Shown here piece by piece: positions 508-35,735 of a DNA stretch of 37,553 nucleotides (position 1 is its first letter; the number at the start of each line of letters is the position of its first letter). The notes under the pieces were generated by a model. That model had not been told where the DNA came from. It ran no database searches and saw only the letters and a list, made by a program, of their open reading frames with translations. The stretch comes from a virus: the IMG/VR virus record IMGVR_UViG_3300022401_000010; one strand, written 5' to 3'. Both the position numbers and the translations under genes were made by a program.

Positions 508-789
508 TTATTCCTGGTTTAATTCTTCAAAGATTTGTTTTCCAAGATCAGTCAGCTTATACAATCTTCCAGTCTTATCATCCTCATTAATACAGAAGAT
601 AATGCCTTGACTTTTCAAATCAGATAATAATGCAGAAACTAAACTAAATCTTGCATTCATTATCTCAACAATCTCTGAAGGAGTTTTACGTGATGTTGCG
701 AGGATATTGATTATTTCTTCTCGGTTTTTACTGCGTTTGACATATGCATATGCAGCATCATATGTCCTGGTATCCTTCTCATCTGACAT
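508..789 (-). CDS. Winged-helix transcriptional regulator (MarR/ArsR-like), paralogue of 21114..21395
   Basis: TPSEI...VSALLSDLK helix-turn-helix and GRLYKLTDLG wing. Confidence 0.8.
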   Translation of the reverse strand: MSDEKDTRTYDAAYAYVKRSKNREEIINILATSRKTPSEIVEIMNARFSLVSALLSDLKSQGIIFCINEDDKTGRLYKLTDLGKQIFEELNQE

Positions 790-1117
790 ATAATTCTATA
801 TTAATTATGGATTTAATATTATGATATTTCAGATTATTTTCTATTCTATTATTATTCTATTAAGTACAAACAAATTATTTATATTTATATACAAGATTGG
901 ATATTTCTTTAAAATGTAAAATATTTCATATAACTTATTATTTAGACTAAAGTTAAGTTTAAAATTAATATAAGTTAGTTTTACAAGTGAGAAATAATTT
1001 ATTTATACATTGTGTTAAAATAAAGAATAAATGAAAACGCAAATAGTATACCTTTTTATAGAATAAAGATAATAAAATAATATAATTATTGTATACAGTA
1101 CAAAAGGAATAAATATT

Positions 1118-1309
1118 ATGGCAAATGTAAATAATACATCATCCTATATGGATGCAGATAAAAAGGAAATAATCAAAAAATCAAATTATACATACCGTGA
1201 TGCTCTTGAAGTATCCGCATATCTTATAGAAAAAGGAAAGTTCGAAAGATTCTATAAGGAAATGCAAATTGATAATTTAAAAAAAGAATTAGAAGAATTA
1301 GACGATTAA
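1118..1309 (+). CDS. Small putative ribbon-helix-helix DNA-binding protein with coiled-coil tail
   Basis: TSSYMD-ADKKEIIKK-SNYTYRDALEVSAYLI resembles a strand-helix-helix pattern; similar to 1545 and 5318 products; AAGGA upstream. Confidence 0.55.
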   Translation: MANVNNTSSYMDADKKEIIKKSNYTYRDALEVSAYLIEKGKFERFYKEMQIDNLKKELEELDD

Positions 1310-1544
1310 ACATTTATAGGTTGCGAACTGCACAAGATTTATGAGACTTATGCAGTTCTAATTATGACCTATGTTAATAATACCTTTACACCACTATCTC
1401 TTTAATTCATCATTTAAAAATATATCCCAAAACTACTTTTTTTAACCTTCCAAAATTATTATTTATTACTTTTAAATTTGATAAATTTCTATGGTTTGAA
1501 TATTATGTAATGTATTATATACAAGTAATATATAAACTATCATT

Positions 1545-1793
1545 ATGTTAGGTAATAAATCTACAATCAGTGCAAGAGTGTCTAACACTCTCAAAGAAGT
1601 GGTAGTTGATTCTGAGTATTCTCACAAAGAGGCATATGAACTTGGAGCTGGTCTAATAGCAGTTAACAAGGCAGAAGAAACCAAAACTGAATTAGAACAT
1701 GACCCAACATATGAAAAAGCAATCAGAGAGAAAAAGACAAAACTACTTAAAGACGAGAAAAAGAAACTGGAAAAAGAATTGAGAGATCTATAG
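1545..1793 (+). CDS. Small putative ribbon-helix-helix DNA-binding protein with coiled-coil tail
   Basis: STISARVSNTLKEVVVDSEYSHKEAYELGAGLI fits the CopG/Arc-like pattern. Confidence 0.6.
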   Translation: MLGNKSTISARVSNTLKEVVVDSEYSHKEAYELGAGLIAVNKAEETKTELEHDPTYEKAIREKKTKLLKDEKKKLEKELRDL

Positions 1794-1803
1794 GAGGAAT
1801 CCT

Positions 1804-2613
1804 GTGGGTCAGAAGAATTCAGACGTGATATACTTTTTAGAACAGCACAAGCAAGAAATAATTAACAATTGCAAAAAAGGAATGAGTAACAATGACGTAC
1901 GTGAATTATTGAAAACCAAATACGGAAGAGATGTAGCAGATAATACCTATAGAAAATTCAAGGCAACGCTAAAACTAAACAAGAATGATTTCCTGGAAAC
2001 CTTACTGGATGAAATCATTACCATGAAAACGGCTGGGGCCACAGATGAAAACGTTCGAAGGTGGTTAGCTGACGAACACTTATTTGAAGTTAGTCGAGCT
2101 TCATTTTCACGGTTCAAAAAGAAATACCAATTAAGGGATAAGGACAAAGACCCCAGAGCCCAAGACAAAGAAACATTAACTAATCGAGCAATATCACAAG
2201 GCCAACTACTAGACAATGACATCCACACCGATAATATAGATACAGCTATTGATACAATACTACAGCAACAGGTAACTGATATTAAAACCGGCCTTAACAA
2301 TCTTGACAAGATAACCAAGAATGCAGTGAATATTGAAATTGATTTTGCAAAGCTTGATCAGGAAATACGATTTAATGCTAATGAAAAAAGCTTAGCTAGA
2401 TATTTACTGGATTTGGCTGAATTGAAAATTCGTTATTTAGAATTATCTGTTAAAGCATTTGATGCGAAAAATAAACTATTTAAAGATGAGATGGACAGAC
2501 TCTTTAAAAACAGAGTCCTTGAGCTAGAAGATAAGAAAATTGAAATCTCACAAAAAGATTTGATGAATGAAATTGAAGTCCTTGCAAAGCAAATAGATGA
2601 TAATAATGTATGA
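1804..2613 (+). CDS. Putative terminase small subunit (two tandem HTH-like repeats plus helical oligomerisation region)
   Basis: Directly upstream of and overlapping terL; GGAGG upstream of GTG start; two ~45-aa repeats (KGMSNNDVRELL..VADNTYRKFK / AGATDENVRRWL..VSRASFSRFK). Confidence 0.6.
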   Translation: MGQKNSDVIYFLEQHKQEIINNCKKGMSNNDVRELLKTKYGRDVADNTYRKFKATLKLNKNDFLETLLDEIITMKTAGATDENVRRWLADEHLFEVSRASFSRFKKKYQLRDKDKDPRAQDKETLTNRAISQGQLLDNDIHTDNIDTAIDTILQQQVTDIKTGLNNLDKITKNAVNIEIDFAKLDQEIRFNANEKSLARYLLDLAELKIRYLELSVKAFDAKNKLFKDEMDRLFKNRVLELEDKKIEISQKDLMNEIEVLAKQIDDNNV

Positions 2614-4015
2614 TGAAAACAACCGATTCTATTTAGATGCAAGAGATAAAGCTATTCTTCAGAAATGTGTATATGAGAATCCATATATACCATTCAAACC
2701 ATTCATCAAACAAACTGAGATGATTCTAGCTACTGAAAAAGAAGTATTGATTGGTGGTGCTGCCGGAGGCAGTAAATCCACCAGCTTACTTATGAGAGCC
2801 TTATTTTATGTACAAGACGATTGCAATGAATATCATGCACTAATTTTAAGAAGAACATTATCCGATTTAAAAAGGAAAGGTGCTTTAATCCATAAGGCCA
2901 GTCAATGGCTTAACAGGAAAGAAATTCAAAGAGACCCAGCTATTAGGGTTAAGTGGGATGGTACTGAACATTCATGGACTTTTCCAAACGGCAATTCATT
3001 AACATTCGGATATTTGCGTAACATTAACGACCTCGATACTTATCAAGGTTCTGAATATCAATTCATTGGTATTGATGAGTTAACACAACTGGAGCGCTTT
3101 AAATATATCTATATGCGTTCACGTGTCAGGAAAACTAAAGACAATAAACTTCCAACTCAACTGATGGCTTCAAGTAATCCTGGTAAGCGTGGTAACAAGT
3201 GGGTGCGCGAAAGATTTATTGAAAAGATAGATGAGGACATCCAAGACAAAGACCAGATAAGATTCATATCCTCCAGTTATGTGGATAATATCTATTTAGA
3301 CCGTAAGGACTATGAAGAATATCTTATGGGATTGGATAGGGTGACACGGGAACAGTTAATGAATGGTAACTGGTATGCTACCGTTAAAGGTGAGCTATTT
3401 GATGAATCGGATTTCCACTTGATCTCTCACGATGAGTATATGAAAATTCCGATCATTAGTGTTATCAGGTATTGGGATCTTGCAGCTACTGAAGTCATAA
3501 GTGACAGCACCAGGAGAAATGATGATCCGGATTTCACCGCAGGTGTCATGCTGGCAAAAGACTTGAACGGCAATATCTATATTCTTGATTCATACGAGTT
3601 TCAATTGGAATCACGGAACTTAATTAATGAGATTATCAATACTGCTGCACGTGATAAAGCGGACACTCAATATATAGAACTTGACGGAAGTACAGGTAAA
3701 AACTTCGGCCTGTTAATCATTGATGAATTAAACAGACGTGGATTCAATACTGGTACTGGTAACTCCCGTGAGAATAAAGTTGACAGGGCCAGAAGAGTGT
3801 CAGCTGATATTCAGCTCAATGGAATATATCTGGTTGGAAAGGATAGAACAGGGTTTACTAAAAAATGGGCTATGGAATTTTTGGAAAAAATAACTGCATA
3901 TCCTAATGAATCAATACATGACGATTGTGTTGTTGCCTTTACTGGAGCATATGAAAAACTGGCTTCACAAAACCAACCTAAAAGAGTTGATGTCGATAAA
4001 TGGTATTCCACTTGA
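2606..4015 (+). CDS. terL: Terminase large subunit
   Basis: Walker A GGAAGGSKS, Walker B FIGIDE, coupling motif SSNPG, nuclease motifs RYWDLAA and HDD. ATG at 2606 preferred over the track start 2597. Confidence 0.95.
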   Translation: MYDENNRFYLDARDKAILQKCVYENPYIPFKPFIKQTEMILATEKEVLIGGAAGGSKSTSLLMRALFYVQDDCNEYHALILRRTLSDLKRKGALIHKASQWLNRKEIQRDPAIRVKWDGTEHSWTFPNGNSLTFGYLRNINDLDTYQGSEYQFIGIDELTQLERFKYIYMRSRVRKTKDNKLPTQLMASSNPGKRGNKWVRERFIEKIDEDIQDKDQIRFISSSYVDNIYLDRKDYEEYLMGLDRVTREQLMNGNWYATVKGELFDESDFHLISHDEYMKIPIISVIRYWDLAATEVISDSTRRNDDPDFTAGVMLAKDLNGNIYILDSYEFQLESRNLINEIINTAARDKADTQYIELDGSTGKNFGLLIIDELNRRGFNTGTGNSRENKVDRARRVSADIQLNGIYLVGKDRTGFTKKWAMEFLEKITAYPNESIHDDCVVAFTGAYEKLASQNQPKRVDVDKWYST

Positions 4016-4090
4016 ATAGCTATCGTTAATGTGAATATTGAACGTTAATGTTAATATTTGGACTTTATCATGGAGTTGATGTACATGAGC

Positions 4091-4635
4091 ATGGACATAT
4101 TATGGACTGGTCTATGGACTAACCATGGACTACCTTGTGGACTTGATGGACTATACTATGGACTGTTAATGGACTACTTTATGGACTAACTATGGACTAT
4201 TATATGGACTGTTTATGGACTAATCAATGGACAAAGTATGGACTAACCTATGGACTGTTTATGGACTAAGTTATGGATGGACTTAAAGTTGGACTACAAA
4301 TGGACTTATGGATGGACGGATGGACATGTGGACATAACCAAATCAGGTATACCCCCCAAGTGAATTTAATCCAAGCCCAAATTGAGCTTCTTTTTTTAGG
4401 GTGTCCATAGCTATGGACTAACTATGGACTATGTTATGGACTGTTTATGGACTAGACTATGGACTACTTTTTTCATATTTTGTGAAAAATTATTGCCTGC
4501 GAATCTAGTCAAGCGAATATAACATTGTTATCTTTCCAAAATCTACGCAATTTTCAGGGGGTACACATTTTTTTGGGTAGTCCATATGGACGGATGGATG
4601 GACTACAGTCCATTTTATGGACTAGGTTATGGACT
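4091..4635 (+). repeat. Non-coding array of ~31 direct (A/G/T)TGGAC(T) repeats with alternating 11/12-bp spacing, in three blocks, plus three inverted copies
   Basis: Counted by eye: about 22 copies 4091-4333, 5 copies 4413-4464, 4 copies 4586-4634; inverted GTCCAT at 4403, 4580, 4608. Confidence 0.95.
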
Positions 4636-4878
4636 GTTTACCGTGCAACAGTTCACTCTGTCGCGCAAAAATTCATCCCGCGAAAAAATCGATATAATAA
4701 TTTTTTTGCAATTTTACAATTGTAAAATTCTAACAGCAATACAATTTATTATTATACATAAATAATAAAATAATATAATATAATACAAATAAAATAAAAA
4801 AATAAGTTTATATTTTGCTATCATTTTATATAGTAGTAATTCTAAAAATTAATTTATATATTGGAGTGAGTGATAATC

Positions 4879-5037
4879 ATGCCAAATACTAAGCAAAAAT
4901 CATTTAGAATATCTGAAGAGTTAGCAATTGAATTTGAAGTTCATGCTAGAAAAACTCAGACAAAAGAAGTTGATCTTATAACAAGATACATAACAGAGGG
5001 ATTGAAAAGGGATAGTAATCAAACTACATTGGATTAA
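4879..5037 (+). CDS. 52-aa ribbon-helix-helix protein, absent from the ORF track
   Basis: My translation: MPNTKQKSFRISEELAIEFEVHARKTQTKEVDLITRYITEGLKRDSNQTTLD; GGAGTGAG upstream; typical Arc/CopG pattern. Confidence 0.8.
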   Translation: MPNTKQKSFRISEELAIEFEVHARKTQTKEVDLITRYITEGLKRDSNQTTLD

Positions 5038-5077
5038 AATTATTGAAAATGTGTAAAAAAATAGCGATAAGTAGTAA

Positions 5078-5105
5078 TTATGAAATGACGGCAATCATTT
5101 CATAA
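5078..5105 (+). terminator. Perfect 11-bp hairpin after the RHH gene
   Basis: TTATGAAATGA-CGGCAA-TCATTTCATAA. Confidence 0.5.
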
Positions 5106-5317
5106 CACATAAGTTTAAACTTAATTATAATTTTAGAAATTAATTATATTTAAACTTTTATATAAAAAAGTGTATTATATACATAATATTTTTTTCACAT
5201 TTCCAATTCAAGAGTGAGAATGGAAGTGTTATACATGGAAACTGAAACTGACAAGTCTTCCAGTAGAGTGATGGAAGCAAAAAACAATTTAAACAGCTTA
5301 TTATGGAAGTGTTTATA

Positions 5318-5782
5318 ATGGCTGAGAAAAAAGACTTTCATATTTTAGCTGACAGTAAAATGGCATCCAAAGCCAAAGAATTATCTGGTTTAACACACAG
5401 ACAGATTTTTGAGCTAGGTTGTCAAGCTGCTATAGAACAAAACAGGAACATTTTAGATGCTGAGATTTTAGAATTGAATGATGCAATGGATAGGGTTAAT
5501 GAATTAACTGCATCAATTAGATCAAGACTAAAAGATAAAGAGGTTCCAACAAAACCTAGTGATGATGAAAATGATCCTGAAGAATTAAGAAGAAATATTT
5601 TACCATTAGATTTGTTTAAAGAAATGGTATTGTATTATATGGATGATTTTGATATAACTAATTTAGAAGATTTAGGTAGTAAGAATAAAGAAATCTTCAG
5701 ATTCGTTTTAATTAATTTGGCTAACCACGATTTGAATATGGAAGATATAAATAGTTTATATGAGGATATTAACTCTAAATAA
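5318..5782 (+). CDS. RHH-like N-terminus, coiled coil and helical C-terminal domain; hypothetical
   Basis: KKDFHILADSKMASKAKELSGLTHRQIFELG resembles the 1118/1545 products; ATG 5318 preferred over 5303. Confidence 0.6.
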   Translation: MAEKKDFHILADSKMASKAKELSGLTHRQIFELGCQAAIEQNRNILDAEILELNDAMDRVNELTASIRSRLKDKEVPTKPSDDENDPEELRRNILPLDLFKEMVLYYMDDFDITNLEDLGSKNKEIFRFVLINLANHDLNMEDINSLYEDINSK

Positions 5783-5820
5783 CATTTATATCTTCTTTTC
5801 ACCCCACTCTTTTTTTAAAG

Positions 5821-5869
5821 TTGCAACTGTTTTTTCAGGAATTGCAATTAATTGCAACAAAATTGCAAT
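5821..5869. repeat. Mini-array of four TTGCAA palindromes; 32 bp identical to 34273-34304
   Basis: TTGCAA at 5821, 5842, 5852, 5863. Confidence 0.85.
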
Positions 5870-6128: not shown

Positions 6129-7445
6129 ATGGAAATGGTTAAAATGGGAATTACTTCTTTTATAAAAACTAGATTGCTCAATAACAGAGTAGAACAGTAC
6201 AATACTAAGCGTAGCTATTGGGGCGAGGATGAAAGGCAACCTAGAACTGATGGAATCAACACTGGCCTTGACTTGATTGATGCACTTCCTCCTGTAATTA
6301 ACAAGACCATAGCTAATGCAAGATATGCTGTTAAACTTGACGGTTACACTTCAGGAGTTTTGAAAAATAGAATTGATAAAGCTAATGTTAATATAGTTCT
6401 GGTGGATAAGGAAGAAAAACTTTCAGCAGAACAGAAACTAACTCTCATCCTATGGGCACGTAAGATTGACATCTCACAGGTTGCTAAAAATATTCTTCAG
6501 GCTGGAATGGTTGACGGTGAGGGATTGATTAAACCTGTTGAGCGTTGGGACCAGTCAATTGGCAAATACATTAAACCTATCTTTTTAGAAATCGGCGCCA
6601 ATGGTTACGGATTAAAGAAAGAGTTTAATGATGATAATGAGGTGCAGCTATACCTTCATGAAATGCCTAAGGATATTGTTAACGGATCACCTGAAGAGTT
6701 CAACAATTATGTTAGTGTTGAAGAGGGAACATTAACGGTTAAGTATGAACCGGAAGAGGTTATTAACTTCATGTACAATGAGATTTATTGCGAGGCGCAA
6801 AGCATTATCCTCAATTGCCTTGATGATATATACCACAAGTGCAATCTTGAAAGAAATCAAGTAGAAAGGATTAATAAGGATAATATTATTGAAGTAAAGC
6901 CTTCTTTGGATAGTAACGGCCAACCTATTGTTACAGAACTTTCAGCAACTGCAAAAGAAAATCTTTATGCTGATTACGGAACAACTGCTGATTCAAATGT
7001 AGCTATTGTTCCTCCAGGAATTGAAAGTAAAATACTTGGGGGTAACAACTACCAATCTGACTATACAAGACAAACGGAAATCTTTAGAAATAATATTTTA
7101 AGGACTTTTGTTACCCCACAGTCTCAAGCGGGTAATGAGAAATCTAATCAGAACGTGGCAGAGTACATTAACGATTCAGCTATTACAGGGTTTATTGTTA
7201 ATGTGGCCAATGACCAGAAGTGGGTGTTAAAGTATTGTAATGAATTATTAAACAGACAGTTAGAGTTAATGGGCGTTAAAGAAAATCTTAATATCTATTT
7301 TAGCTATTCAAGAGATGATGTTCTCAGATATATTATGGAACTTGATGCTAATGCTGATGAAATCTATGAGAACTATTTAAGCAACTTTGAAGCCGAACAG
7401 CCGGTAGGGGATAGAGTTCTTACAGATAGTGGTGTTGAGATATAA
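6129..7445 (+). CDS. Portal protein
   Basis: 438 aa, between terL and the protease-scaffold gene; portal-like pattern (AVKLDGYTSGVL, VAIVPPGIE, ILRTFVTP). Confidence 0.75.
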   Translation: MEMVKMGITSFIKTRLLNNRVEQYNTKRSYWGEDERQPRTDGINTGLDLIDALPPVINKTIANARYAVKLDGYTSGVLKNRIDKANVNIVLVDKEEKLSAEQKLTLILWARKIDISQVAKNILQAGMVDGEGLIKPVERWDQSIGKYIKPIFLEIGANGYGLKKEFNDDNEVQLYLHEMPKDIVNGSPEEFNNYVSVEEGTLTVKYEPEEVINFMYNEIYCEAQSIILNCLDDIYHKCNLERNQVERINKDNIIEVKPSLDSNGQPIVTELSATAKENLYADYGTTADSNVAIVPPGIESKILGGNNYQSDYTRQTEIFRNNILRTFVTPQSQAGNEKSNQNVAEYINDSAITGFIVNVANDQKWVLKYCNELLNRQLELMGVKENLNIYFSYSRDDVLRYIMELDANADEIYENYLSNFEAEQPVGDRVLTDSGVEI

Positions 7446-7487: not shown

Positions 7488-8471
7488 GTGATTATTATGA
7501 AGCATGAACTTTTTGAAGTTGGATCATATGACTATTCTGACTTGGATGAAAGGTTGACCAAACCTGTTGAATGGACTGCTGAAGATCTAAAGCTAATAGC
7601 TGAAAATTACCGTGGCGGAATTCCTTTAACTTCAGAACATGACAATATCTATGTGGGTATTGGAAATAAAATAGAGTATGAAGATGGAAAGCTATTCATT
7701 GAAGTTCCAGATGACCTTGATATGGAAGGTAAAGGCCTATCTCCTAAAGTTGATGTTTTATTGAAAGATAACGGAGATTCATTTGGAATTGATACTATGA
7801 GTTTAATAGATGTCGGTGTTACAAAGCATCCAAGAAAAATTAGATTGTTGAATTCAGATATTACTGGACAGACCGGACAGACTGGAGACCCTGAACCACC
7901 GGCACCTGCTCCGCAGCCACAACCTCAACCTCAGCCACCTGCAAAAGACACTAATGTTGCTACTACCTTATTATTAGAAAAACTTCAGGGCAAGGATGCA
8001 GAGATTGGAAAGCTTCAGGATGAAATTAATAATCTAAAAGAAGAATCTAAAAAATACGATGAAATAAAAAAAGCTATTGAAGAGAATAAGGAATTCATTG
8101 ATTCTAAAGAGGATATCTTAAAAGAATTGTCTGAGCTTAGAAAAGCTGAAAATGAAAGGAAAATAAAAGAGTACGAGGCAAAGTACAATTTTAACTATAA
8201 TGAAAACGCGCAGGATAAAGAAGTTATTGATAAGCTATTATCCGGTGATGTTGATATGGAGCTAATGGAAAAACTTGCTGAGAGAAGAATTAAAATTGAA
8301 GCTAGTAATGATGGCTCCACACCTGGCGGGAGGAATCCCGGAAACTCAGGAGATACTGGTGAGACAGGCTCAACTGGAAGTGACTCTGATGAGGATAAAC
8401 CTTCTTTCACTACTCGTGAAGAGTACAATAAAATTTTAAAAGATATGGGATTCAATAGAACTAGAATCTAG
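7488..8471 (+). CDS. Prohead protease fused to scaffold (Mu gpI-like)
   Basis: N-terminal LTSEH, GLSP and VGVTKHP motifs; Pro/Gln linker; coiled coil; low-complexity acidic tail. Confidence 0.7.
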   Translation: MIIMKHELFEVGSYDYSDLDERLTKPVEWTAEDLKLIAENYRGGIPLTSEHDNIYVGIGNKIEYEDGKLFIEVPDDLDMEGKGLSPKVDVLLKDNGDSFGIDTMSLIDVGVTKHPRKIRLLNSDITGQTGQTGDPEPPAPAPQPQPQPQPPAKDTNVATTLLLEKLQGKDAEIGKLQDEINNLKEESKKYDEIKKAIEENKEFIDSKEDILKELSELRKAENERKIKEYEAKYNFNYNENAQDKEVIDKLLSGDVDMELMEKLAERRIKIEASNDGSTPGGRNPGNSGDTGETGSTGSDSDEDKPSFTTREEYNKILKDMGFNRTRI

Positions 8472-8543: not shown

Positions 8544-9070
8544 GGAGAGGTGTTTACTCTTTCTACCTCTCCTATTAAATTTACAGCGATACCTTGCATT
8601 GAAACCCTTAATGCCTAAACTAAGGGGGGACAAGCCCCCCTTTAGATTACCCATGATAGCGCAATGCAAGATAATTTTCATATAATTTCATTTAGACCTC
8701 GAACCGACCGGCAAGGGTCGGTTCTTAAATTTGACATACAAATTATTCCAAATCCATAACCTCGGAACAGGGGACAAGCCCCTGTTCCTTAAACTTTGAC
8801 GTAGCTATTATTGTTAAGTCTATAGTATTGGCCTTTCGCTATCGCTCAAGGCGTCCAGTCCGACCTAAAGGTCGGACGGAACATAAGGATTAAATTCTTG
8901 TTATTAAAAATGTTTTTTCTCCATTATTGAATTACGGAACCGACCGGCGAGGGTCGGTTCCTCCCTATAGTATTGCTCGCCAATTCTATTCACCCCACCT
9001 ATACCACGCCTCCCACTTCGGCCTCCCTTACGGTCGGCCTCGGGTCGGCGTGGTTATGGTGGGGCGAATT
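8544..9070. repeat. Cluster of at least seven GC-rich hairpins (REP-like)
   Basis: GAACCGACC-GGCAAG-GGTCGGTTC (8701-8724), GGAACAGGGG-ACAAG-CCCCTGTTCC (8764-8788), GTCCGACC-TAAA-GGTCGGAC (8858-8877), GGAACCGACC-GGCGAG-GGTCGGTTCC (8936-8961), GGGGGG-ACAAG-CCCCCC (~8624-8640), nested stem ~8990-9065. Confidence 0.8.
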
Positions 9071-9151
9071 GGCTCGCTTAAAACGTGGGTGTGCACAGGT
9101 GAATTGATTCACACCATTAACATTAATATTTTAATTATCAAATATTATATT

Positions 9152-9313: not shown

Positions 9314-9532
9314 AAATTCATAACTATTTTCCCCAAGTGATGTAACCTATCAAATAATCAATGTTACTGTTAATTAAAATGAATGTATTGTAATTACTTA
9401 CAATTTAATAATGTATGTATTGCATTAACGGCAAGGTTTCTCAAAATCAATTAACTTTTCAACTATGCATATACATCAACTACTTTTAAAAAACAAGTTT
9501 CAAATAAGAAATGGTGATAGTTGATGTTATAA

Positions 9533-10728: not shown

Positions 10729-10735
10729 TTTAATC

Positions 10736-11110: not shown

Positions 11111-11116
11111 ACTTCA

Positions 11117-11554: not shown

Positions 11555-11835
11555 TTTTTTTCATGATAAGTTATGTAAAATTTTCAATATTTAACGTTAC
11601 ATTAAAACAATAGCTATTTATTTTAGCTTTAATCCGGAGGATTTAATTTCATATTAATGGCCTGATTGTTAGTGTTGTTTTTTCAATACCTAATGTATAT
11701 TTCAGTGCAAGATGGGCACTTTTGAAATCAGAAACATTAATGTTAATATTACTATATTTATTATATAATTTATATAAAAAGGATAATAAAATATTATTTA
11801 TGACATTGATAAAAGAATTGCAGATTAACATTGTA

Positions 11836-13758: not shown

Positions 13759-13811
13759 TCAAAATAATAAAATATATAATAAAACATATAATATTATAGC
13801 GAGGATTTAAC

Positions 13812-14421: not shown

Positions 14422-14445
14422 ACTTCTCTGGAGAATATTATTAAG

Positions 14446-22374: not shown

Positions 22375-22398
22375 TGAATTAGTTTTAAGAATAATAAC

Positions 22399-27674: not shown

Positions 27675-28157
27675 ATGGCAGATTCAATTATTTTACTTGA
27701 AGAAAGAAAGGAAGTCACCACATTCCTTTTAGATGAAGGTGACATTACTGAAACTACTGTTACAACTCCAACTGGAGAAACACCAGGATATGAGTATTCT
27801 GGAGAAAAAATCAAAGTTGATGATGCTGTAACATTATCAGAAAATTCCAATATCGGAAAACCAACTGTTAAAAAATACACCGATGAGGATTCACAAATCA
27901 TCTTAGGCATTGCAGTTAATGATCCAGTTACTATGACTGGAGGTAGAAGAAAAACTTCTATATTAGTGTTAGGCCATTTATTCAGATTAAAATTAGCTAG
28001 TGGTTTATCAAACATTGCCGTTAATGATAGAATTGCATTAACATCTACTGGAGCTATTAAATCTGATGATGGTGAATATATTGCAATGCATCCTGTTGAA
28101 AGCTCAGACTCATACAATTACATTGAAGTATTCAGACCTTACGATATAACCGAATAG
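27675..28157 (+). CDS. Putative capsid decoration (cement) protein
   Basis: 160 aa beta-rich gene directly upstream of the MCP genes; GGAGG RBS; TATA-like TTTATATA upstream. Confidence 0.65.
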   Translation: MADSIILLEERKEVTTFLLDEGDITETTVTTPTGETPGYEYSGEKIKVDDAVTLSENSNIGKPTVKKYTDEDSQIILGIAVNDPVTMTGGRRKTSILVLGHLFRLKLASGLSNIAVNDRIALTSTGAIKSDDGEYIAMHPVESSDSYNYIEVFRPYDITE

Positions 28158-28170
28158 ATGGTGATAATGA

Positions 28171-29109
28171 ATGATAACAAAAGGAAATGATACTAAAGTT
28201 CAAAACGAGGTAATAGCTCAAACTATTACTGATGAAACCGCAAAAAGATTAAAGTTAGCAAGATTATTTCCTAAACAAGAGATTAAAGAAAACTCTGATT
28301 ACTATACTTACTTTAGACAAAACATTAATCTTGATGAGGCAATTAACAAAGGTCTTTTAGGTGAGGCAAAGGACATTGCTCCTGGTGCATCCTTACAAGA
28401 ACTTAACATTAGAAAACCAATCACTGACACTATTTCAATAGATACTGTTGGTGGTGTCTTAAACGTTAACAAAGATGTTTTCGATTCAGATATTGTTTCA
28501 TTCGAGGATTTATTAGGTGATGTAGCTACTGTAATTGCTAATCGTATTGAATTTAATATATATGATACCTTAATGAATTCAAATCAAGTTCCTCAATATA
28601 ACACAACTCAAACTGAAGACACAATGGAAGCATTCGGCCAATTCGTTATTGCAGCTCAGGAAGCATTCAAAGGTAATGCTGGAGCCGGAGCAGACTTAAC
28701 AATAATGGCTGAATCATATAAGACATTATCATATGTTAAGCAATTAGCGTACATGAATAACAAACTTGTGCAACCTGTTGAAGATATCCAAAGCTATTAT
28801 GGTATTGACAACATTGATTTCTTAGGAACAACCCAAGCTGACGGTGGATCACTTGTAGGTGATAAAGAATATATTGGTTTCGATTTAAGAAACGCTCCCC
28901 TAACTGTATTATACTCCAAATCATCCGGTACAACTACCGCACCTATAACAAGTGATGAAAACATCGCTGACTTCTATCCTATCATTGAAATCATGCGTAA
29001 GGACATATACGATGAGTTACCTCAATACACCAAATTATTTATACAAAGTAAAGTAGGAATATTATTAAATAAACCTGGTCTTGCTTTGAAAGGTACATGC
29101 AGACCTTAG
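28171..29109 (+). CDS. Major capsid protein 1 (HK97-fold inferred)
   Basis: IAPGASLQEL..TISIDTVGGVLNV..VIANRIEFNI resembles the HK97 E-loop/backbone helix pattern; size and position fit. Confidence 0.75.
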   Translation: MITKGNDTKVQNEVIAQTITDETAKRLKLARLFPKQEIKENSDYYTYFRQNINLDEAINKGLLGEAKDIAPGASLQELNIRKPITDTISIDTVGGVLNVNKDVFDSDIVSFEDLLGDVATVIANRIEFNIYDTLMNSNQVPQYNTTQTEDTMEAFGQFVIAAQEAFKGNAGAGADLTIMAESYKTLSYVKQLAYMNNKLVQPVEDIQSYYGIDNIDFLGTTQADGGSLVGDKEYIGFDLRNAPLTVLYSKSSGTTTAPITSDENIADFYPIIEIMRKDIYDELPQYTKLFIQSKVGILLNKPGLALKGTCRP

Positions 29110-29121
29110 GAGGATATATTA

Positions 29122-30048
29122 ATGTTAACTAAAGGAAATGATGCTAAAGTACAAAATGAAGTAATGGCACAGATTGTTGCAGACACTTCTGCAAAGTGGA
29201 TGAAATTCACCAGATTACTACCAAAGCAAGAAATTGAAGAAAATAGCCAATATTACACTTACATGTCTCAGAGAGTTAATATTGAGGAAGCTATTCAAAA
29301 AGGTGTGCTTGGTGAGGCCAAAGACATTGCACCGGGCGCAACCCTTCAAGAATTAAACGTTAGAAAACCAATCAGTGAAACAATCTCCATTGACACTATT
29401 GGTGGTGTCTTAAACGTTTCAGCACAAATGTTAGATTCCAATTTAATCTCCGTTAATGATATGCTCCAAGACGTGGGCATATTAATCGGAAGAAGTATTG
29501 AAAAAGCAGCTATTGATATGATCACCAATTCAAACAAAGTTGCGAAATATGATTTTGAATCTGGTGACGATACTGGTATGACCATCCTTAAAGCTCAAGA
29601 GAAATTCAAAGAATCAGCAGGAAGCTTTACCAACTTAAATAGTATGGCTGTTAGCTATAAGTCTCTCACTACATTAAAGTCTGATTTATTCTCTTCTAAC
29701 AGACAAGTCGAACCAGTAGAACATATTCAAAGCTACTATGGTGTGGACAATATAGATATTCTTGGAACTGCTGTCTGTGATGGTGGTTCTGAAATGGGCG
29801 ATAAGACCTACATTGGTATGGACTACATAAATCCAGGAATGAAATTGTTATACTCAAGGACTACAGGAACAACCGTTGCACCTTTAGGTCCTGACGGTGA
29901 GATGTATGATTTCTATCCGTTAATTGAATTTATGAGGAAAGATATTCGTGACGAACTTCCAATGTACACAAAACTCTTTATCTTGTCTTCTGTCGGTGTT
30001 TTAATGAATGCACCTAACCGTATAATTACAGGTACATTCAGGGCATAA
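29122..30048 (+). CDS. Major capsid protein 2, tandem paralogue of MCP1
   Basis: Collinear full-length similarity to 28171 (GEAKDIAPGA, IQSYYG, DFYP.IE.MRKDI.DELP.YTKLFI); GGAGG RBS. Confidence 0.75.
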   Translation: MLTKGNDAKVQNEVMAQIVADTSAKWMKFTRLLPKQEIEENSQYYTYMSQRVNIEEAIQKGVLGEAKDIAPGATLQELNVRKPISETISIDTIGGVLNVSAQMLDSNLISVNDMLQDVGILIGRSIEKAAIDMITNSNKVAKYDFESGDDTGMTILKAQEKFKESAGSFTNLNSMAVSYKSLTTLKSDLFSSNRQVEPVEHIQSYYGVDNIDILGTAVCDGGSEMGDKTYIGMDYINPGMKLLYSRTTGTTVAPLGPDGEMYDFYPLIEFMRKDIRDELPMYTKLFILSSVGVLMNAPNRIITGTFRA

Positions 30049-30315: not shown

Positions 30316-30714
30316 ATGAAGCTAATATTAGATACTGAAAATTCACATCCAACAACAATAACAGTTAGAGGAAAAGAAATAACACTGCTTTTAATTGAAT
30401 CCAGTATTCTAATTGATTCATCACAAGTAGCTAAAATATTTGATAAGAAAGAAAAGACTGTAGCTACTAAAGTACAGAAAGCTAAACTTGAAAAATACGA
30501 AACAGAGAATGTTAAGCTATTAAAGAATTACGGCTTGATGAATCCAGATGCAATTAAGCCTAGACCATTTTATGATCTCAGGCAAATGTTGGAAGGACCA
30601 GCACAATATTACTTCAAACAAATTGATGATCTTGATCTTATCGATGTTATTGTCAGAGTTGCAATTGGCAAGCATCGTGAGTGGATCCATAACCGTGACA
30701 TCAACAAATATTAA
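30316..30714 (+). CDS. Hypothetical DNA-binding protein (ORF6N/Rha/antirepressor-like)
   Basis: ILIDSSQVAKIFDKKEKTV resembles antirepressor N-terminal motifs; GGAG RBS. Confidence 0.4.
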   Translation: MKLILDTENSHPTTITVRGKEITLLLIESSILIDSSQVAKIFDKKEKTVATKVQKAKLEKYETENVKLLKNYGLMNPDAIKPRPFYDLRQMLEGPAQYYFKQIDDLDLIDVIVRVAIGKHREWIHNRDINKY

Positions 30715-30717: not shown

Positions 30718-30822
30718 ACATTAACGGCAGCCATTATCAATTGAAAACTTATTTTTGAAACCCTTTCATATATATCACGGTTTAAATCCAGAATTGAATT
30801 TCAAAAACCCTTCCGTTAATGT
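30718..30822 (+). repeat. ~105-bp element with 10-bp terminal inverted repeats (MITE/REP-like)
   Basis: ACATTAACGG ... CCGTTAATGT; 22-bp core TGAAACCCTTTCATATATATCA identical to 35777-35798. Confidence 0.7.
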
Positions 30823-30972
30823 TAATGTTGAATCGATTATATTAACAGCTATTGTTTATCTACTAAAATTATCATATTGAAAACCTCAGATTTTAATTCT
30901 AGTAAGACATATATTTTTCCAGTAATGAAATTGCAATCGTTAATGTTGATGTGTAAAAACTACAATAAATAA

Positions 30973-31914
30973 TCAAGATGAACTATTTTTCTTTAAATAC
31001 TTTGATAATATTGATTTAGAAATTTTACACTCTTCAGAAATTTCATCTAGTGTTAAACCGAGTTTTAAATTTTTTTTAATATAAGTTACACCACCAAAAT
31101 TCTTCAATCCTAATTCAACAGTCCATTTTGAAATTTGATTATTTAGTTTTTGGGGATTAATTCCTTTATAATTCAAATAGTCATTAAAGAATTTACGTTT
31201 AATATTTAAATTCTCACATATCTCTTTAATAGACTTACCATTGACTAATTCATCAATTATAAATAAAACTCCTCCTTTTTCATCAATGATTGTATAATCA
31301 TCTTTGAAACCTCTAGCTTGTTTGACAAGTTCATGCCATGTGGAAATTCCTTGTTCATTCAAATATTCTTTGATATAACTTTGAGGAACTTTCAAATCTA
31401 ATGCTGCTTGTTTTTGTGTTTTATTTTCCTTTGCAAGTTCATATAATTTTGTAAATCCCCCATTATTGTTGATATGTCTCATTTTAAAATAATGTGCTTC
31501 AACTCTGTCTAATTCCCTAGCTAGATTTATTTGTTCCTGAATATCTGCTCTTACTTTAGAAGAGTTTCCACCATATTTGAGATTATAACCTTTTTCAGGA
31601 TTTGTTGAATCAAAATAATCAATCCAGTATTCTTCAGCTTCATCAAGATTTTCTTTGGATGTTTTCTCAATTATTCTGAATTCAAATGCTTCCTCACCAT
31701 ATTTATTAAAAGCATTTTGCAAATAGGGATTATTGTGTATATTGTTTTTTAATTCGAATTTATGATTTCTCCATCTCTTTTTGATGTCAGATGATTGGCC
31801 AATGTATCCTTTATTATTTTTCAGATTGGTGATTTTGTATATTCCACAGTTTGAATTTTCAACTTCAGATTCTAAATCTTCAAATATATCGAGTTTACGA
31901 TATTTACTCAACAT
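30973..31914 (-). CDS. GIY-YIG endonuclease with C-terminal HTH-like repeats
   Basis: CGIYKITN..GYIGQS..KKRWRNH, EEYWI, GYN motifs. Confidence 0.9.
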   Translation of the reverse strand: MLSKYRKLDIFEDLESEVENSNCGIYKITNLKNNKGYIGQSSDIKKRWRNHKFELKNNIHNNPYLQNAFNKYGEEAFEFRIIEKTSKENLDEAEEYWIDYFDSTNPEKGYNLKYGGNSSKVRADIQEQINLARELDRVEAHYFKMRHINNNGGFTKLYELAKENKTQKQAALDLKVPQSYIKEYLNEQGISTWHELVKQARGFKDDYTIIDEKGGVLFIIDELVNGKSIKEICENLNIKRKFFNDYLNYKGINPQKLNNQISKWTVELGLKNFGGVTYIKKNLKLGLTLDEISEECKISKSILSKYLKKNSSS

Positions 31915-32093
31915 AATTACACCTCTTTTAATTATTAAAGAAAATGCTATCTCTATTTAACATATCCTAAGATACATGGAATTTTAGTATCTCGGGATAG
32001 TTTTATATACAATCAATAATATATTATATGTAAGTAAATATAAATGTAACTACATTATAATGTAATAACATAATTTAATTAAAGGTGCATAAC

Positions 32094-32636
32094 ATGACAA
32101 ATGATAAATTTGATGAATTGATTCAAAAGCAAGTGCAGCGTGAAAACAAAATGAAGCAGGTACGTGAAGATTATCTGAATGAAATGAATGAACTTCCTAA
32201 AAAACAAATAACAGTTAAATTATTTCCCAATACACATAAGACATTAAAAATAATCGCTACTGCAAAAGATACAACATTAGAAACAATTGCAACTTCAATA
32301 TTAGAAGAGAGGATTGAAGGATTGGATATTGTCGAATATGTTAAAGAATCATTTGAGAATAATGATGGCTTTGATTGGTTAAAACAGACTGATATTGATA
32401 ATACTGCTTATGACATTAACGATAAGCTATTGGATAAAGGAAATCCAAGAAAAAGAATTAATGTTAAAGTAGATCCAGATACTCACAAAAAATTAAGGAT
32501 AGTGTCAGCTATTCAGGATAGATCACTAAATAAAATCGTGGGTTCCATTATTGAATACGAGATTGGAGAAATAAATAATATTGACGCATCCAAATTAATG
32601 GATGAGATACTAGAATCAATACAAGATAAAGAATAG
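32094..32636 (+). CDS. Tandem ribbon-helix-helix protein
   Basis: KQITVKLFPNTHKTLKIIA and KRINVKVDPDTHKKLRIVS repeats; ATG 32094 after GGTG. Confidence 0.75.
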   Translation: MTNDKFDELIQKQVQRENKMKQVREDYLNEMNELPKKQITVKLFPNTHKTLKIIATAKDTTLETIATSILEERIEGLDIVEYVKESFENNDGFDWLKQTDIDNTAYDINDKLLDKGNPRKRINVKVDPDTHKKLRIVSAIQDRSLNKIVGSIIEYEIGEINNIDASKLMDEILESIQDKE

Positions 32637-32667: not shown

Positions 32668-33789
32668 TTAGATTAACTTAACTTCTTCCTTCGGAACATA
32701 CTCTATTGTATCCGTTGGTTCTTTTTCCACCTCTATTTCTTCAAGTTCAACAGGTTCTTTATCTTTAACGATAGTGTTATGTTTGCCATTGAAGAAAGTG
32801 TTAATCCTTGTTAATGACTTTGTATCTCCTAACAAGTGATTATAATCCTTAGCTAGTTCGTTATACTTTAACTTATAGCTATTGAGCTCTTGAGTGTAAG
32901 CCAGTAACATTTGCGCTTTTTCTTCAGTGTGCTTAAGTTCCATATCTGATTTTTGATTGGTAAGCTTAAGGTCAACTTCAGCAGTTAATTTATTTAATTC
33001 AGCTTCAGCATCATTTATTTTTTCCTGCAATTCCTGAAGTGCAGCGTAATGTTCTTTAGGTGGAACATACTCTTTAAAGCCGGAAAAAGATTCTACTTTT
33101 TTAGTTAATTCATCTATATGTGATTGTTGTTTTTTAATAGTTTCTTTCAATTCTTTTTCTCTTGTTTCAAAATTAGATTGGAGTTCTCTTTTTGTTTCCT
33201 CATAATTTTTATTTAAGCCGATAATATTTTCATTGAGGAGTTTATTGGTTTCGTTAATGTGATCGTTAGCAGTTTTCAATTGCTCATTGTCTTTAATCAA
33301 CTCTTCATTTCTAGCTACTACGCCATCAGATGTTTCAATCATATTTTCATATGCATTCTGCCAATATTGATGTTGACCACGTTCTGATTCCAAATCTTCT
33401 TTTAATTGTTCGATTTCATCTTTATCGTGGACTTTAGGTTGGCTTTTATTTGATTCAAGTTCTTTTCCAAGTGAATCAACTCTATCCTTTAGAGTATTTA
33501 TCATTTCATCTTTTTCCTGAATCTGTTTTTCCAAATCTTCAGCGTTACTGTCGGATGAGCTATTGAGTATTTTATTTTCAAGCTCTTTTATTCTAGACTT
33601 GTATTCATCCACTTGATCCATATCCTTGATTAAGTCAAAGTGCTGCTGTTCTGACAGGACATAGACTTTTTCACCAACACCAAATAAGCTATTGCTGAAT
33701 CCTATCCTGTTTGCATTCTTTGTATTTTTCTTGACTTCAAATTCAAGACCGAATCTTTCATCTGACTTTTTGAGTTTTTTCTCGGTCAT
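32668..33789 (-). CDS. Long coiled-coil protein with small N-terminal beta (AbrB/DUF2080-like) domain
   Basis: EVKKNTKNANRIG..GEKVYVLSE then ~270 aa of heptad-rich sequence; GGAGTG RBS before ATG 33789 (track start 33816). Confidence 0.6.
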   Translation of the reverse strand: MTEKKLKKSDERFGLEFEVKKNTKNANRIGFSNSLFGVGEKVYVLSEQQHFDLIKDMDQVDEYKSRIKELENKILNSSSDSNAEDLEKQIQEKDEMINTLKDRVDSLGKELESNKSQPKVHDKDEIEQLKEDLESERGQHQYWQNAYENMIETSDGVVARNEELIKDNEQLKTANDHINETNKLLNENIIGLNKNYEETKRELQSNFETREKELKETIKKQQSHIDELTKKVESFSGFKEYVPPKEHYAALQELQEKINDAEAELNKLTAEVDLKLTNQKSDMELKHTEEKAQMLLAYTQELNSYKLKYNELAKDYNHLLGDTKSLTRINTFFNGKHNTIVKDKEPVELEEIEVEKEPTDTIEYVPKEEVKLI

Positions 33790-33845
33790 CACATTCACTC
33801 CAATATCCTTACACATATTTTTATAATATCATATATTTTATAGTA

Positions 33846-34545
33846 TTGCAATCAATTGCAATTTTATTGCAACAATAATTGCAACAGTTGCAACTGGAAT
33901 TGCAATTCTATTTTTGAAAATTGCAACTCAAAATTATGTTGAAAATTGTTTAATTTTGAAATTTTAAAAAAAAAATAAACGATAAATGTTATTTTTCAGG
34001 GTTTATTGTTTGCTTGCAGGAATGATTAATTATTGTAATACTTGTAAGACAATACATACATTTCCTTGGTATGCCACTATAAGGTCGAAAAATGGGGGTG
34101 GTGAGTGATACAGATGTGCCGGTTGCTACTCTGCAGTTTCACAATGTAGTACAATAATTTATATACATTCGTGTAAGTATTACATATTGCAACAATTGCA
34201 ACTTTAAAATAATGAATTGCAACTTCAATTAAAATGGGGTCAAATACGGATTTTCCGACTTTTTCGATTTTGGGAATTGCAATTAATTGCAACAAAATTG
34301 CAATTCATATACCCAAAAATTGCAACTAAATTGCAATTTCTTCAAGAGGTTAAATTTGACTTTCTTAAAATTACCTTTGTTCATTTTTCTATAAGAAATA
34401 CTATAAAATATTGAACAAACTAATAATTAAAAATTGCAATTAATTGCAACTCTGATCGTGGTTTTCAGGGTGAAAATTTCAAGAGTTGCAACTGAGTTGC
34501 AATAAAGTTGCAACAAAATTGCAATAGTTGCAACTGGAATTGCAA
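33846..34545. repeat. Two blocks of phased TTGCAA palindromes (7 copies 33846-33926; 16 copies 34187-34545) around a central spacer
   Basis: Counted by eye; most neighbours are 9-12 bp apart. Confidence 0.9.
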
Positions 34546-34666
34546 CACCTATTTCGGCCATACCATATAGCATAACTAATACAAAACCTATGATTTAACA
34601 TAATAAAATAATGTAGGTAATACAACAGCAATACTGTTAGTCATATTATATAAAAATAATAATACT

Positions 34667-35497
34667 ATGATATATAAATTATATAATATGTCAAGTAATA
34701 GTATAAGCTGGACAAGTTTCTGCCAGGCTATGAACTCAATAGCATACTGGCTACTCCAGAATAAAAAACAATATAAGAAACGTGATTACTACCAAATGCT
34801 CAAACTGAAAGGTAGTTGCAAAGATATAGAGAAGCGCGCGAAAAAATTAGGTAACGATAAGCTAGTGGCAATGTATACAATGGCCGTCATTAAAGATAAC
34901 AAGTCTTTGGATTTCCTTCCCAATTATGTAACGTTAAAGAACGGAGAGGAAATCGATAAAGCGGAATACATTGACATGGCCATAAGAACTGAAAGCTACA
35001 TCAAGGCCAATAAAAGATATCCTGCAATAGTATATAGGATGTCCAAACTTCCTGACTATAAAGATACAACAATGAAGTTCTTTATCAAAACCTTCAATTA
35101 TAAAGGCAATACCATTGATGAGGCCTTAGCTATTATAGCAAACAAGAAATTATATAGTAAGTACTTTGATTCACAGAAAACTGATAAACAAACCATCAAT
35201 GATGCAAGTAAAGGTAAAGGCTCCAACTGTGTGGACTGGGGACAGGTATATTACCGTATCGCCAAAAGCTTAGGTTATGACGTGCAGTTCATCCACGTCA
35301 AGTGTCGTGTCAGCGGTACTGGCCATATCAGATTAAGGCTGAGACATAAGAAACATACAGGAGGAAACTGGATCAACCGTGACCCTGCAGCAGTAGCAGA
35401 TTCAACTTCAGGTAATGTTAGATCCATATGGTGTGAGGATGGATATGTTATAGCATACGATCCAAGTTGGATATTTACAGATTTATATTCAAGTTAA
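34667..35497 (+). CDS. Pseudomurein endoisopeptidase (PeiW/PeiP-like endolysin)
   Basis: Pseudomurein-binding repeat EYIDMAIRTESYIKANKRYP; Cys-His-Asp triad in NCVDW, GHIRL, RDPAA. Confidence 0.85.
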   Translation: MIYKLYNMSSNSISWTSFCQAMNSIAYWLLQNKKQYKKRDYYQMLKLKGSCKDIEKRAKKLGNDKLVAMYTMAVIKDNKSLDFLPNYVTLKNGEEIDKAEYIDMAIRTESYIKANKRYPAIVYRMSKLPDYKDTTMKFFIKTFNYKGNTIDEALAIIANKKLYSKYFDSQKTDKQTINDASKGKGSNCVDWGQVYYRIAKSLGYDVQFIHVKCRVSGTGHIRLRLRHKKHTGGNWINRDPAAVADSTSGNVRSIWCEDGYVIAYDPSWIFTDLYSS

Positions 35498-35507
35498 AGG
35501 TGATAAT

Positions 35508-35735
35508 ATGAATTGTGGCGAGGCAATTGAAGTTTTAAAAAAATTTCCAAAAGATAAACCGTTAATGATAATGGGATGGTACAGCATTATAGAAACAGAT
35601 GCTCCTGAAGAGATACATGAAATAGGTTATCTCAAGGAAGTGGACTTTAACACATTGGAGGTTAAAGGTGATATAAAAGACTTTGTGGCTATTGTTAGCG
35701 ATAAGTATCATGAGATAGCCAGTGAATTTCCATAA
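35508..35735 (+). CDS. Hypothetical protein
   Basis: GGTGA RBS; follows the lysin gene. Confidence 0.55.
   Translation: MNCGEAIEVLKKFPKDKPLMIMGWYSIIETDAPEEIHEIGYLKEVDFNTLEVKGDIKDFVAIVSDKYHEIASEFP

Follow-up and report, generated by a model that had tools for sequence, protein, structure and literature searches.

A candidate tailless virus of Methanobrevibacter with HK97-type head genes, collagen-like fibres and no recognisable tail module

How would a virus with a portal and an HK97-type capsid deliver its DNA if it had no tail? The question is raised by IMG/VR virus record IMGVR_UViG_3300022401_000010, a stretch of 37,553 nt that was analysed as a whole and is called the window here. The original prediction, made from the letters alone, described an HK97-type element of a methanogen at 508-35735 with head, packaging and lysis genes and without a recognisable tail, integrase or replicase. 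It left three readings: a tailless head-fibre virus, a capsid-forming satellite, or a domesticated particle resembling a gene transfer agent (GTA). The first is the sole survivor of the three and a strong candidate. On balance we lean, with modest confidence, toward an autonomous, plasmid-like virus of Methanobrevibacter that possesses no tail module and bears its fibres on the head.

We found that the element is collinear, once permuted, with vir323 (Caudoviricetes sp.; BK063679.1 / NC_133304.1) at 76-89% nucleotide identity (blastn), with protein identities of 93.6% for TerL, 92.5% for the portal and 98.7% for the second major capsid protein (MCP2). The vir323 record is circular, 34,179 bp long and metagenomic, comes from goat faeces, and names Methanobacteriales as the host; NCBI taxonomy leaves it unclassified within Caudoviricetes. 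The vir323 genome was reportedly described by Medvedeva et al. 2023 (Nat Microbiol 8:2170). The likeness extends to the same permuted gene order, circularity, the lack of an integrase and the same ATGGAC and TTGCAA repeat arrays. The two differ in the diverged fibre tip proteins at 17267-19800 and in cargo, which in the window comprises an ArsR-DGC-Fer4 group, a TPR-HIRAN protein, a type III restriction-modification (R-M) system and an adhesin-like protein, and in vir323 a methyltransferase and four unknown minus-strand genes. The element occupies the entire window and not only the span first assigned to it; the window ends do not overlap, and completeness is judged from the relatives. By these comparisons the window is a complete, circularly permuted 37.5-kb virus genome, the episomal form of the vir323 lineage in rumen Methanobrevibacter. 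The virus group is already published and the element is not a new kind. In the literature searched, to which the paper describing vir323 did not belong, we met no description of a lineage-wide lack of a tail module, a decoration-domain fibre anchor or two lifestyle forms.

Relatives of the element reside in Methanobrevibacter genomes, and the host of vir323 is given as Methanobacteriales. Homologues carry the source names Methanobrevibacter thaueri, M. gottschalkii, M. sp. YE315 and uncultured Methanobrevibacter, with one record from M. smithii, and two word-based homologue searches returned only the present lineage among their best 120 matches. Of 301 genomes from the host family, 59 contain the portal, and within one genus (Methanobrevibacter) it occurs in 49 of the 90 species genomes. 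Complete portal copies are 87-94% identical and number up to five per genome, on different contigs or at different sites, and some copies are broken by stop codons or shortened. Head genes are strongly conserved between copies (87-99% at the amino acid level). The Methanobrevibacter gottschalkii/thaueri/millerae group comprises the main methane producers of the rumen. Because the element occurs in about half of the sampled species, often in multiple copies, it is probably the commonest virus of these methanogens. One decayed copy adjoins host NifS/NifU genes on a 67.8-kb contig (L079, from ERZ1314788); its portal-sized gene is cut to 285 aa and its collagen gene truncated to 114 aa, and it retains a 46-aa Phage_tail_C fragment and a truncated MCM with MCM_N and MCM_OB only.

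All open reading frames (ORFs) of at least 60 aa were scanned with Pfam, and most also with PHROGs. On the plus strand, TerL (2597-4015) matches Terminase_6N (1.6e-13), Terminase_3 and Terminase_6C in Pfam, and the 269-aa product of 1804-2613 is a putative small terminase subunit (TerS) by its position, overlapping the terL start, and by a weak N-terminal helix-turn-helix (HTH) match (Clr5, 0.0012). The portal gene (6129-7445, +) found nothing above threshold in Pfam (Phage_portal, E 0.066); its Atlas features score 0.96-0.97 to the Portal_Mu, Phage_portal and SPP1_portal clusters, and its vir323 orthologue is annotated as portal. It is followed by a prohead protease fused to a scaffold-like coiled coil (7488-8471, +). 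This assignment draws on the vir323 annotation and on a PQ linker and subsequent coiled coil seen by eye, and no match was obtained in Pfam, PHROGs or PDB profiles. Two tandem paralogues of the HK97-type major capsid protein, of 312 and 308 aa (28171-29109 and 29122-30048, +) and 56% identical to each other, are intact in all copies examined, and MCP2 matches Pfam Phage_capsid_4 (PF25209) at 29.9 bits against a cut-off of 27. They form a three-gene operon with a 160-aa protein (27675-30048, +), 19 kb away from the portal gene. A pseudomurein endoisopeptidase (Pei) lysin at 34667-35497 (+) carries the Pfam domains Peptidase_C71 and PMBR. PDB sequence and profile searches with the portal, capsid proteins, protease and decoration domain gave no result. 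On the Pfam match of MCP2 and its paralogue, the element has the HK97-fold major capsid protein of Caudoviricetes, and on the Pfam domains of TerL and the Atlas features of the portal, for which Pfam is weak, it also has their large terminase and portal. TerL, portal, two MCPs, three decoration paralogues, fibres and lysin, all named in the original prediction, are thus present by Pfam, Atlas features, vir323 annotation or alignments; the protease-scaffold, also named there, agrees with the vir323 annotation and its visible features and lacks profile support.

By contrast with this head and packaging set, no ORF of the window matched a tape measure, tube, sheath, baseplate, adaptor, integrase, primase or replicative helicase in Pfam or PHROGs. 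These absences had been claimed beforehand, and they stand, save that a helicase had been denied without restriction and an SF2 helicase-domain protein is present as Res of the type III R-M system. The "tail" labels in the vir323 record and among the window's PHROG matches stem from collagen repeats (phrog_819, phrog_3904) and a 26-residue Phage_tail_C end. A 382-aa coiled-coil protein was considered as a tape measure on a weak PHROG match (1e-4) and rejected: it is encoded on the opposite strand, within the regulatory region, and integrated copies lack it although they have every structural gene. For this last reason the protein is not essential to the virion.

Neither the window nor nine full-length relatives nor a sister lineage yielded any tail gene. 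The same tail-less core occurs in three integrated copies on complete chromosomes (one in genome G162, two in G127) and in four whole-contig circles, and its genes are intact and collinear in nine copies and the sister lineage. The latter, with portals 54-56% identical, encodes TerL, portal, protease-scaffold, and collagen and Ig-like fibres of 735-1055 aa. It also has a distant homologue of the 395-aa protein described below, a homologue of the 256-aa protein, the 63-aa protein, both small membrane proteins and the glycosyltransferase. More distant Methanobacteriales viruses share the Pei lysin and the host order with the window: TerL is 35% identical to that of psiM2/psiM100 (Leisingerviridae), and portal identity is 24-29% with vir249 and the G013 provirus. 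These long-tailed viruses have a single capsid gene in a contiguous head operon, a major tail protein, a chaperone and genes of tape-measure size (1364-1902 aa), whereas the window has duplicated capsid genes, far from the portal gene, and no tail module. As outgroups, G013 (portal 29%) is a siphovirus with a 1364-aa ORF assigned by size and position to the tape measure, and vir249 (portal 24%) has an annotated major tail protein, chaperone and 1902-aa tape measure. Since the core is kept in nine relatives and the sister lineage while the outgroups are long-tailed, the lack of a tail is a trait of the lineage. Gene content across these genomes thus indicates that loss or replacement of the tail module is old and stable and not a decay of the present copy, and the alternative of a decayed provirus becomes very improbable.

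If there is no tail, where do the fibres sit? One domain family of about 155 residues occurs in three paralogues of the window: the 160-aa decoration-like protein of the capsid operon (27675-28157, +), the N-terminus of a 210-aa protein (15315-15947), which is 52-63% identical to it, and the N-terminus of a 256-aa protein (12988-13758), which is 28-30% identical. The latter two lie in a structural operon that spans 11800-21084 (+). In the 210-aa anchor, the decoration-like domain leads straight into G-X-Y repeats; a 290-aa collagen shaft gene (15978-16850) and a 110-aa adaptor follow, the three covering 15315-17267 (+; alignment A1; Collagen 8e-27). Anchor, shaft and adaptor form a single 359-aa chain in G127 (L043:11700-12779), and in homologue P0080 the anchor, collagen and a PF24243 tip domain (Phage_tail_C) are joined in one protein. 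Because of these fusions, the 210-, 290- and 110-aa proteins of the window appear to be pieces of one fibre. Three variable tip proteins of 250, 379 and 207 aa (17267-19792, +; a weak Laminin_G_3 match) mark the region where the window and its relatives diverge. They are followed by a second collagen-like fibre protein with a Phage_tail_C end (19810-21084, +; Collagen 3e-18 and PF24243 1.5e-10 in Pfam).

Modelled as a homotrimer, the 160-aa protein gave an ipSAE of 0.79 against 0.02 for the best control, a pLDDT of at least 83 and at least 40% contact agreement between runs, a mark attained by 20 of 30 solved homo-pairs and by 1 of 23 single chains. The three chains of the predicted trimer converge on its axis with their residues 154-157, at the point where collagen begins in the paralogue. 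According to the model, the protein is a homotrimer, as trimeric capsid decoration proteins are. Of its top 15 matches in VIA, 13 are capsid decoration or head-fibre-base proteins, at weak Z, and so are most of the top Foldseek matches; the weak matches include the Borrelia BB1 outer shell, XM1, Sf11, HFTV1, phi29 gp8.5, YSD1, TW1 and lambda gpD. With phi29 gp8.5 and trimeric decoration proteins of the lambda gpD, TW1 and P74-26 type, the domain has in common a small all-beta build, a predicted trimer, a place beside the capsid genes, one paralogue that continues as a fibre, and weak fold matches (6qyy, 6qvk, 5wk1, 7vii). It differs from them in having no sequence similarity, and the window's fibre is a collagen triple helix split over genes with lectin-like tips; phi29, moreover, retains a collar, knob and appendages. 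The trimer prediction, the consistency of the fold matches and the operon shared with capsid genes favour fibres anchored to the head: the fibre anchor is a paralogue of a decoration-like protein predicted to be trimeric, and the fibres probably sit on the head.

The first gene of the structural operon, which starts at ATG 11800 and not at 11836 as first listed, is a conserved core gene for a 395-aa protein (11800-12987, +). Its AF2 model (pLDDT 74, pTM 0.76) is matched in VIA at Z 10-12.7 over about 170-196 residues by 2a5z, the phage J-1 Dit CBM2 (5ly8), GH16 enzymes and legume lectins, and in Foldseek by legume lectins at a probability of 0.97-1.0; an Atlas lead points in the same, lectin-type direction. 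No distant homologue of it came up when 1.84 billion representatives were searched exhaustively. As modelled, this largest of the unassigned proteins is a ConA-like lectin/glucanase sandwich. The 256-aa protein that follows it (12988-13758, +) joins its decoration-like domain to a Cys-rich C-terminal domain (alignment A1) and is conserved in the sister lineage. Two small core proteins of 63 and 57 aa (13812-14173, +) are kept in all copies and have no family match in Pfam or PHROGs. Two small membrane proteins of 83 and 87 aa (14170-14709, +), each seen by eye to combine two hydrophobic segments with a charged tail, have a holin-like topology and are core genes in all copies and the sister lineage. 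A 199-aa glycosyltransferase of GT-A type (14711-15310, +) completes the stretch ahead of the fibre anchor; it matches phrog_1574 (1.4e-21) and, weakly, Anp1 and Glyco_transf_21, and has a DxD motif by eye.

The absence of an integrase and a replicase has a different explanation from that of the tail. Several features separate free circles from integrated copies: a phased ATGGAC repeat array with 27 copies in 600 nt (4090-4640, +; repeat families D5, D6); two ribbon-helix-helix (RHH) type genes of 52 and 159 aa (4879-5782, +); TTGCAA repeat arrays (33837-34545, also 5819-5869; D11, D14); the gene for the 382-aa coiled-coil protein (32668-33816, -), which has coiled-coil-type matches only; and a 75-aa gene after the Pei lysin (within 34667-35735, +, a stretch with a phrog_37889 match). 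Weak Arc-like PHROG matches concern the 52-aa protein only; the 159-aa protein has no family match and owes its RHH label to the original prediction. All of these features are present in six of six circles (the window, vir323 and four whole-contig circles) and in none of three integrated copies (G162 and the two of G127), and TTGCAA reaches 16-18 per 600 nt in episomal genomes only. The window's junction of TerL, array, RHH genes and portal was found in five assemblies (G225, G272, G255, G221, G297). In four of them the contig consists of the element alone (36,563, 36,922, 34,043 and 35,253 bp), the gene order is unchanged and no host sequence adjoins it; the ends of G272:C25 overlap by 141 nt, and G255:C24 continues from one contig end into the other. 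As judged from assemblies (vir323, G272:C25, G255:C24), the element is an extrachromosomal circular replicon.

On the complete chromosome of G162 the element is integrated and permuted, in the order tyrosine integrase, small genes, MCM helicase (P-loop match 5e-73), RHH gene, PIN gene, portal through lysin, TerS, TerL and HNH endonuclease. Neither clear attachment (att) repeats nor a nearby tRNA were found around this provirus. G127a, G237:C15 and G225:C8 also have an integrase homologue upstream of their portal gene, and the sister lineage has a weak integrase match, below the Pfam cut-off, upstream of its terminase genes. The original prediction was to fall if tail, integrase or Rep genes lay just outside the window or among the unassigned ORFs, or if syntenic relatives had a full tail module; integrated relatives do carry an integrase, and one an MCM, and no relative carries a tail module. 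Because the integrated relatives have these genes, the absence of integrase and replicase belongs to the episomal form and not to the lineage, and the window lacks both because it is that form. The genomes point to a pair of interchangeable modules for maintenance: an integrative one with integrase (and once also MCM) and a plasmid-like one. As an extrachromosomal temperate virus with repeat arrays and small DNA-binding proteins, the element resembles the plasmid prophages P1 and N15. It differs in that no ParA/ParB-type or other partition ATPase, replication initiator or telomerase was found in the window with Pfam and PHROGs, and the role of its arrays is deduced from their association with circles. 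The ATGGAC array was also considered as a pac site and rejected, as it is missing from integrated copies whose putative small terminase subunit is the same (77-85% identity in the two copies that yielded it).

A virus of this kind could operate as follows. The terminase would pack DNA via a Mu-like portal into an HK97-type head made of the two capsid paralogues with the protease-scaffold, and the 160-aa protein would trimerise and decorate that head. Its paralogue that runs into collagen would be extended by the separate shaft, adaptor and lectin-like tip proteins to give head-anchored adhesion fibres, and the second decoration paralogue, with its Cys-rich end, would adjoin the ConA-like lectin. 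Release would be achieved by the Pei lysin, probably together with the two holin-like membrane proteins. For passage of DNA through the pseudomurein wall, a minimal portal structure built of small orphan core proteins and direct docking of the portal are candidates. The episomal form would have swapped an integrase module (with MCM once) for the ATGGAC array, RHH proteins, TTGCAA arrays and coiled-coil protein; arrays, RHH and coiled-coil proteins would probably keep the plasmid going with host replication proteins.

Several points weigh against this reading. All structural roles are deduced, and the virion is known from genes alone. To our knowledge, every prokaryotic virus with a portal has at least one adaptor, so a missed detection is a real possibility in such an isolated lineage, and the 63-, 57-, 83- and 87-aa core proteins could form a minimal tail or ejection device. 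Modelled as a monomer, the 160-aa protein gives a poor structure (pLDDT 51) built on shallow alignments, and its fold matches (Z 4-5.5, TM 0.25-0.35) lie below the tool's informative level, so that only their consistency counts. An anchor at the neck instead of the head is possible for the same domain, and vir323 is annotated with the 160-aa protein as a "preneck appendage". As to lifestyle, an integrase lies within 14 kb of the portal in just 4 of 23 integrated copies examined, and plasmid maintenance is deduced only from the correlation of arrays with circles in a small sample (6 versus 3) with no initiator or partition ATPase found. Each of the five circle-bearing assemblies (G225, G272, G255, G221, G297) also holds at least one further element copy on another contig; this co-residence may be chance or binning, or the circle may depend on the integrated copy.

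In its strongest form the claim would be a truly tail-less, portal-bearing HK97 archaeal virus that infects a methanogen with a pseudomurein wall, whose trimeric decoration proteins nucleate lectin-tipped collagen fibres, and that switches between an integrative module and a plasmid-like, iteron-based one; this we put forward only tentatively, as a possibility. We know of no tail-less virion design with decoration-nucleated collagen fibres among prokaryotic Duplodnaviria.

The first rival is a short-tailed, podovirus-like virus, whose neck and nozzle would be too divergent to be recognised and whose decoration-like domain would anchor fibres and a lectin complex at a portal-vertex collar, in the manner of phi29 appendages. 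The vir323 label just mentioned fits such a collar, as does the presence of phi29 gp12 among the weak fold matches; collagen-like proteins with a Phage_tail_C end are usually tail fibres; and behind the portal operon, every copy and the sister lineage keep an orphan block (395, 256, 63, 57, 83 and 87 aa). Detection is weak here because all the families are without remote homologues. However, the 395-aa protein is by its model a lectin-type sandwich and not a nozzle or adaptor, and a plain 160-aa paralogue resides in the capsid operon, its best fold matches being mostly shell decoration proteins and the phi29 head-fibre base. The remaining 63-, 57-, 83- and 87-aa proteins, 290 residues in total, offer too little for a known adaptor and nozzle, and two of them are membrane proteins. 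We consider a short tail rather doubtful on this evidence.

A capsid-forming satellite or tail pirate, which would fill its own heads, lyse the cell and borrow tails from a tailed Methanobrevibacter virus, is improbable. The full head and packaging set without a tail module is what capsid-forming phage-inducible chromosomal islands (cf-PICIs) also show; long-tailed viruses exist in the same host family; and the further element copy in all five circle assemblies suggests that co-residence is common. But cf-PICIs measure some 10-15 kb; they encode an integrase, a primase-replicase and head-tail connectors, and lack lysis and fibre genes. The present element has the full phage size of 34-37 kb and itself encodes a lysin, a glycosyltransferase and receptor-binding fibres. 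Genes for a head-tail adaptor or connector, which a borrowed tail would require, were not detected in it. In G162 and G127 (complete) and G081 (near-complete), the only PF03237 terminases are the element's own, no PF03354 or PF10145 (PhageMin_Tail) match and no second portal was detected, and thus no other terminase or tape-measure family was seen in these three host genomes. The design is also stable down to 54% portal identity. A domesticated GTA-like system, or a decaying provirus stripped of tail, integrase and replication genes, is very improbable. Over half of the species sampled in the genus harbour the element, its head genes are as conserved as stated above, and broken copies and remnants exist, all of which would suit such a reading. 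But up to five copies per genome at different sites, free circles of 34-37 kb, the varying cargo and homing endonucleases that an active mobile element typically has, a small-terminase candidate of its own, shared promoter motifs, a core intact and collinear in nine copies and the sister lineage, and the circularity of the independently published vir323 assembly speak against it.

If the tailless head-fibre virus is real, it would be an exception to the rule that prokaryotic portal-bearing HK97 viruses are head-tailed, and would open the question of how DNA passes the pseudomurein wall. Head-anchored collagen and lectin fibres would then show clearly that a gut virus can adhere by its capsid. 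As a pair, the integrative and episomal forms can serve as a natural experiment in how archaeal viruses swap modules to change lifestyle. Two carrier genomes (G162, G127) are complete single contigs, and the question may be open to experiment.

Cargo of the window totals about 9 kb (the ArsR-DGC-Fer4 genes, TPR-HIRAN protein and R-M pair), lies between the core blocks and is mostly on the minus strand. A Fer4 protein, a 152-aa ORF, a DGC-domain protein and an ArsR regulator, identified with Pfam and absent from vir323, occupy 9533-11467 (-). A cargo hot spot at 21421-27305 holds the TPR-HIRAN protein (+) and the type III R-M pair of Res (894 aa; ResIII 9e-17) and Mod (740 aa; N6_N4_Mtase 2e-46), which spans 22399-27305 on the minus strand. 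This slot, between the fibre genes and the decoration-capsid operon, always contains R-M or methylase genes that differ per genome: a type III pair in the window and G127a, a C5 methylase with two Eco47II-type endonucleases in G162 (L040:8600-19500), and a lone methyltransferase in vir323 (L016:14393-15604). In some relatives the hot spot after the fibre genes has a group II intron reverse transcriptase with RVT_N, RVT_1 and GIIM domains (L080:13382-14881 and L081:12315-13814), and in another a KAP NTPase. A second variable spot carries an adhesin-like protein in the window (35988-37454, -; Big_3_5 and PG_binding_1 in Pfam) and other genes in vir323, G162 and G127.

Several regulators and small genes flank the core. 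A 93-aa winged-helix regulator (508-789, -; HTH_45 and HTH_5 in Pfam) has a paralogue at 21114-21395. Upstream of the terminase genes lie two small conserved genes of 63 and 82 aa (1118-1793, +; phrog_33871, 6.6e-6) that are present in integrated and episomal forms. The capsid operon is followed by a Rha-like regulator of 132 aa (30316-30714, +; phrog_518 at 0.004 and Phage_pRha at 0.078, both weak), a GIY-YIG homing-type endonuclease with HTH repeats (30973-31914, -; Pfam GIY-YIG 2.4e-10) and a 183-aa double RHH regulator (32085-32636, +; phrog_7146 and Arc-like families).

No Rfam family and no tRNA were found in the whole window. After the scaffold gene, a GC-rich hairpin cluster of about 500 nt without an ORF (8590-9095; alignment A2) is present in both forms of the element. 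It consists of perfect hairpins with loops that often read ACAAG or GGCNAGG and is 75-85% conserved between episomal and integrated copies. Compensatory changes affect 17 of 122 predicted pairs in six sequences, and fold z-scores are -9.4 and -9.6 on the two strands. It might act as a structured RNA or, at the level of DNA, as a site of another kind, for example an origin or packaging signal.

An 82-102-nt repeat occurs in three copies (235-316, 30744-30846 and 35765-35867) that are 67-81% identical; two stand at converging genes and the third at the 3' end of the gene at 508-789, beyond which no gene is called. Its core, CCTTGCCGTTAA, has inverted occurrences at 9409-9439 and 28010-28040. The repeats may be terminators or small RNAs. 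As att sites (235, 30765, 35786) they were rejected, given their low identity to each other, the internal position of the third copy and their location at gene convergences.

An AT-rich motif (TTTATATAA..AATAATAAA) precedes seven operons, at 1055, 6066, 7449, 11764, 13747, 27616 and 30279 (repeat families D8, D10, D12, D13), and looks like a common archaeal late-gene promoter. Because this promoter-like motif recurs in both halves of the element, the two halves appear to belong together. In G162 (L041:10332-12372), an HNH endonuclease gene directly follows terL, and behind it part of the 3' end of terL is repeated (71% identity to 3469-4011 of the window), an arrangement that looks like a homing event.

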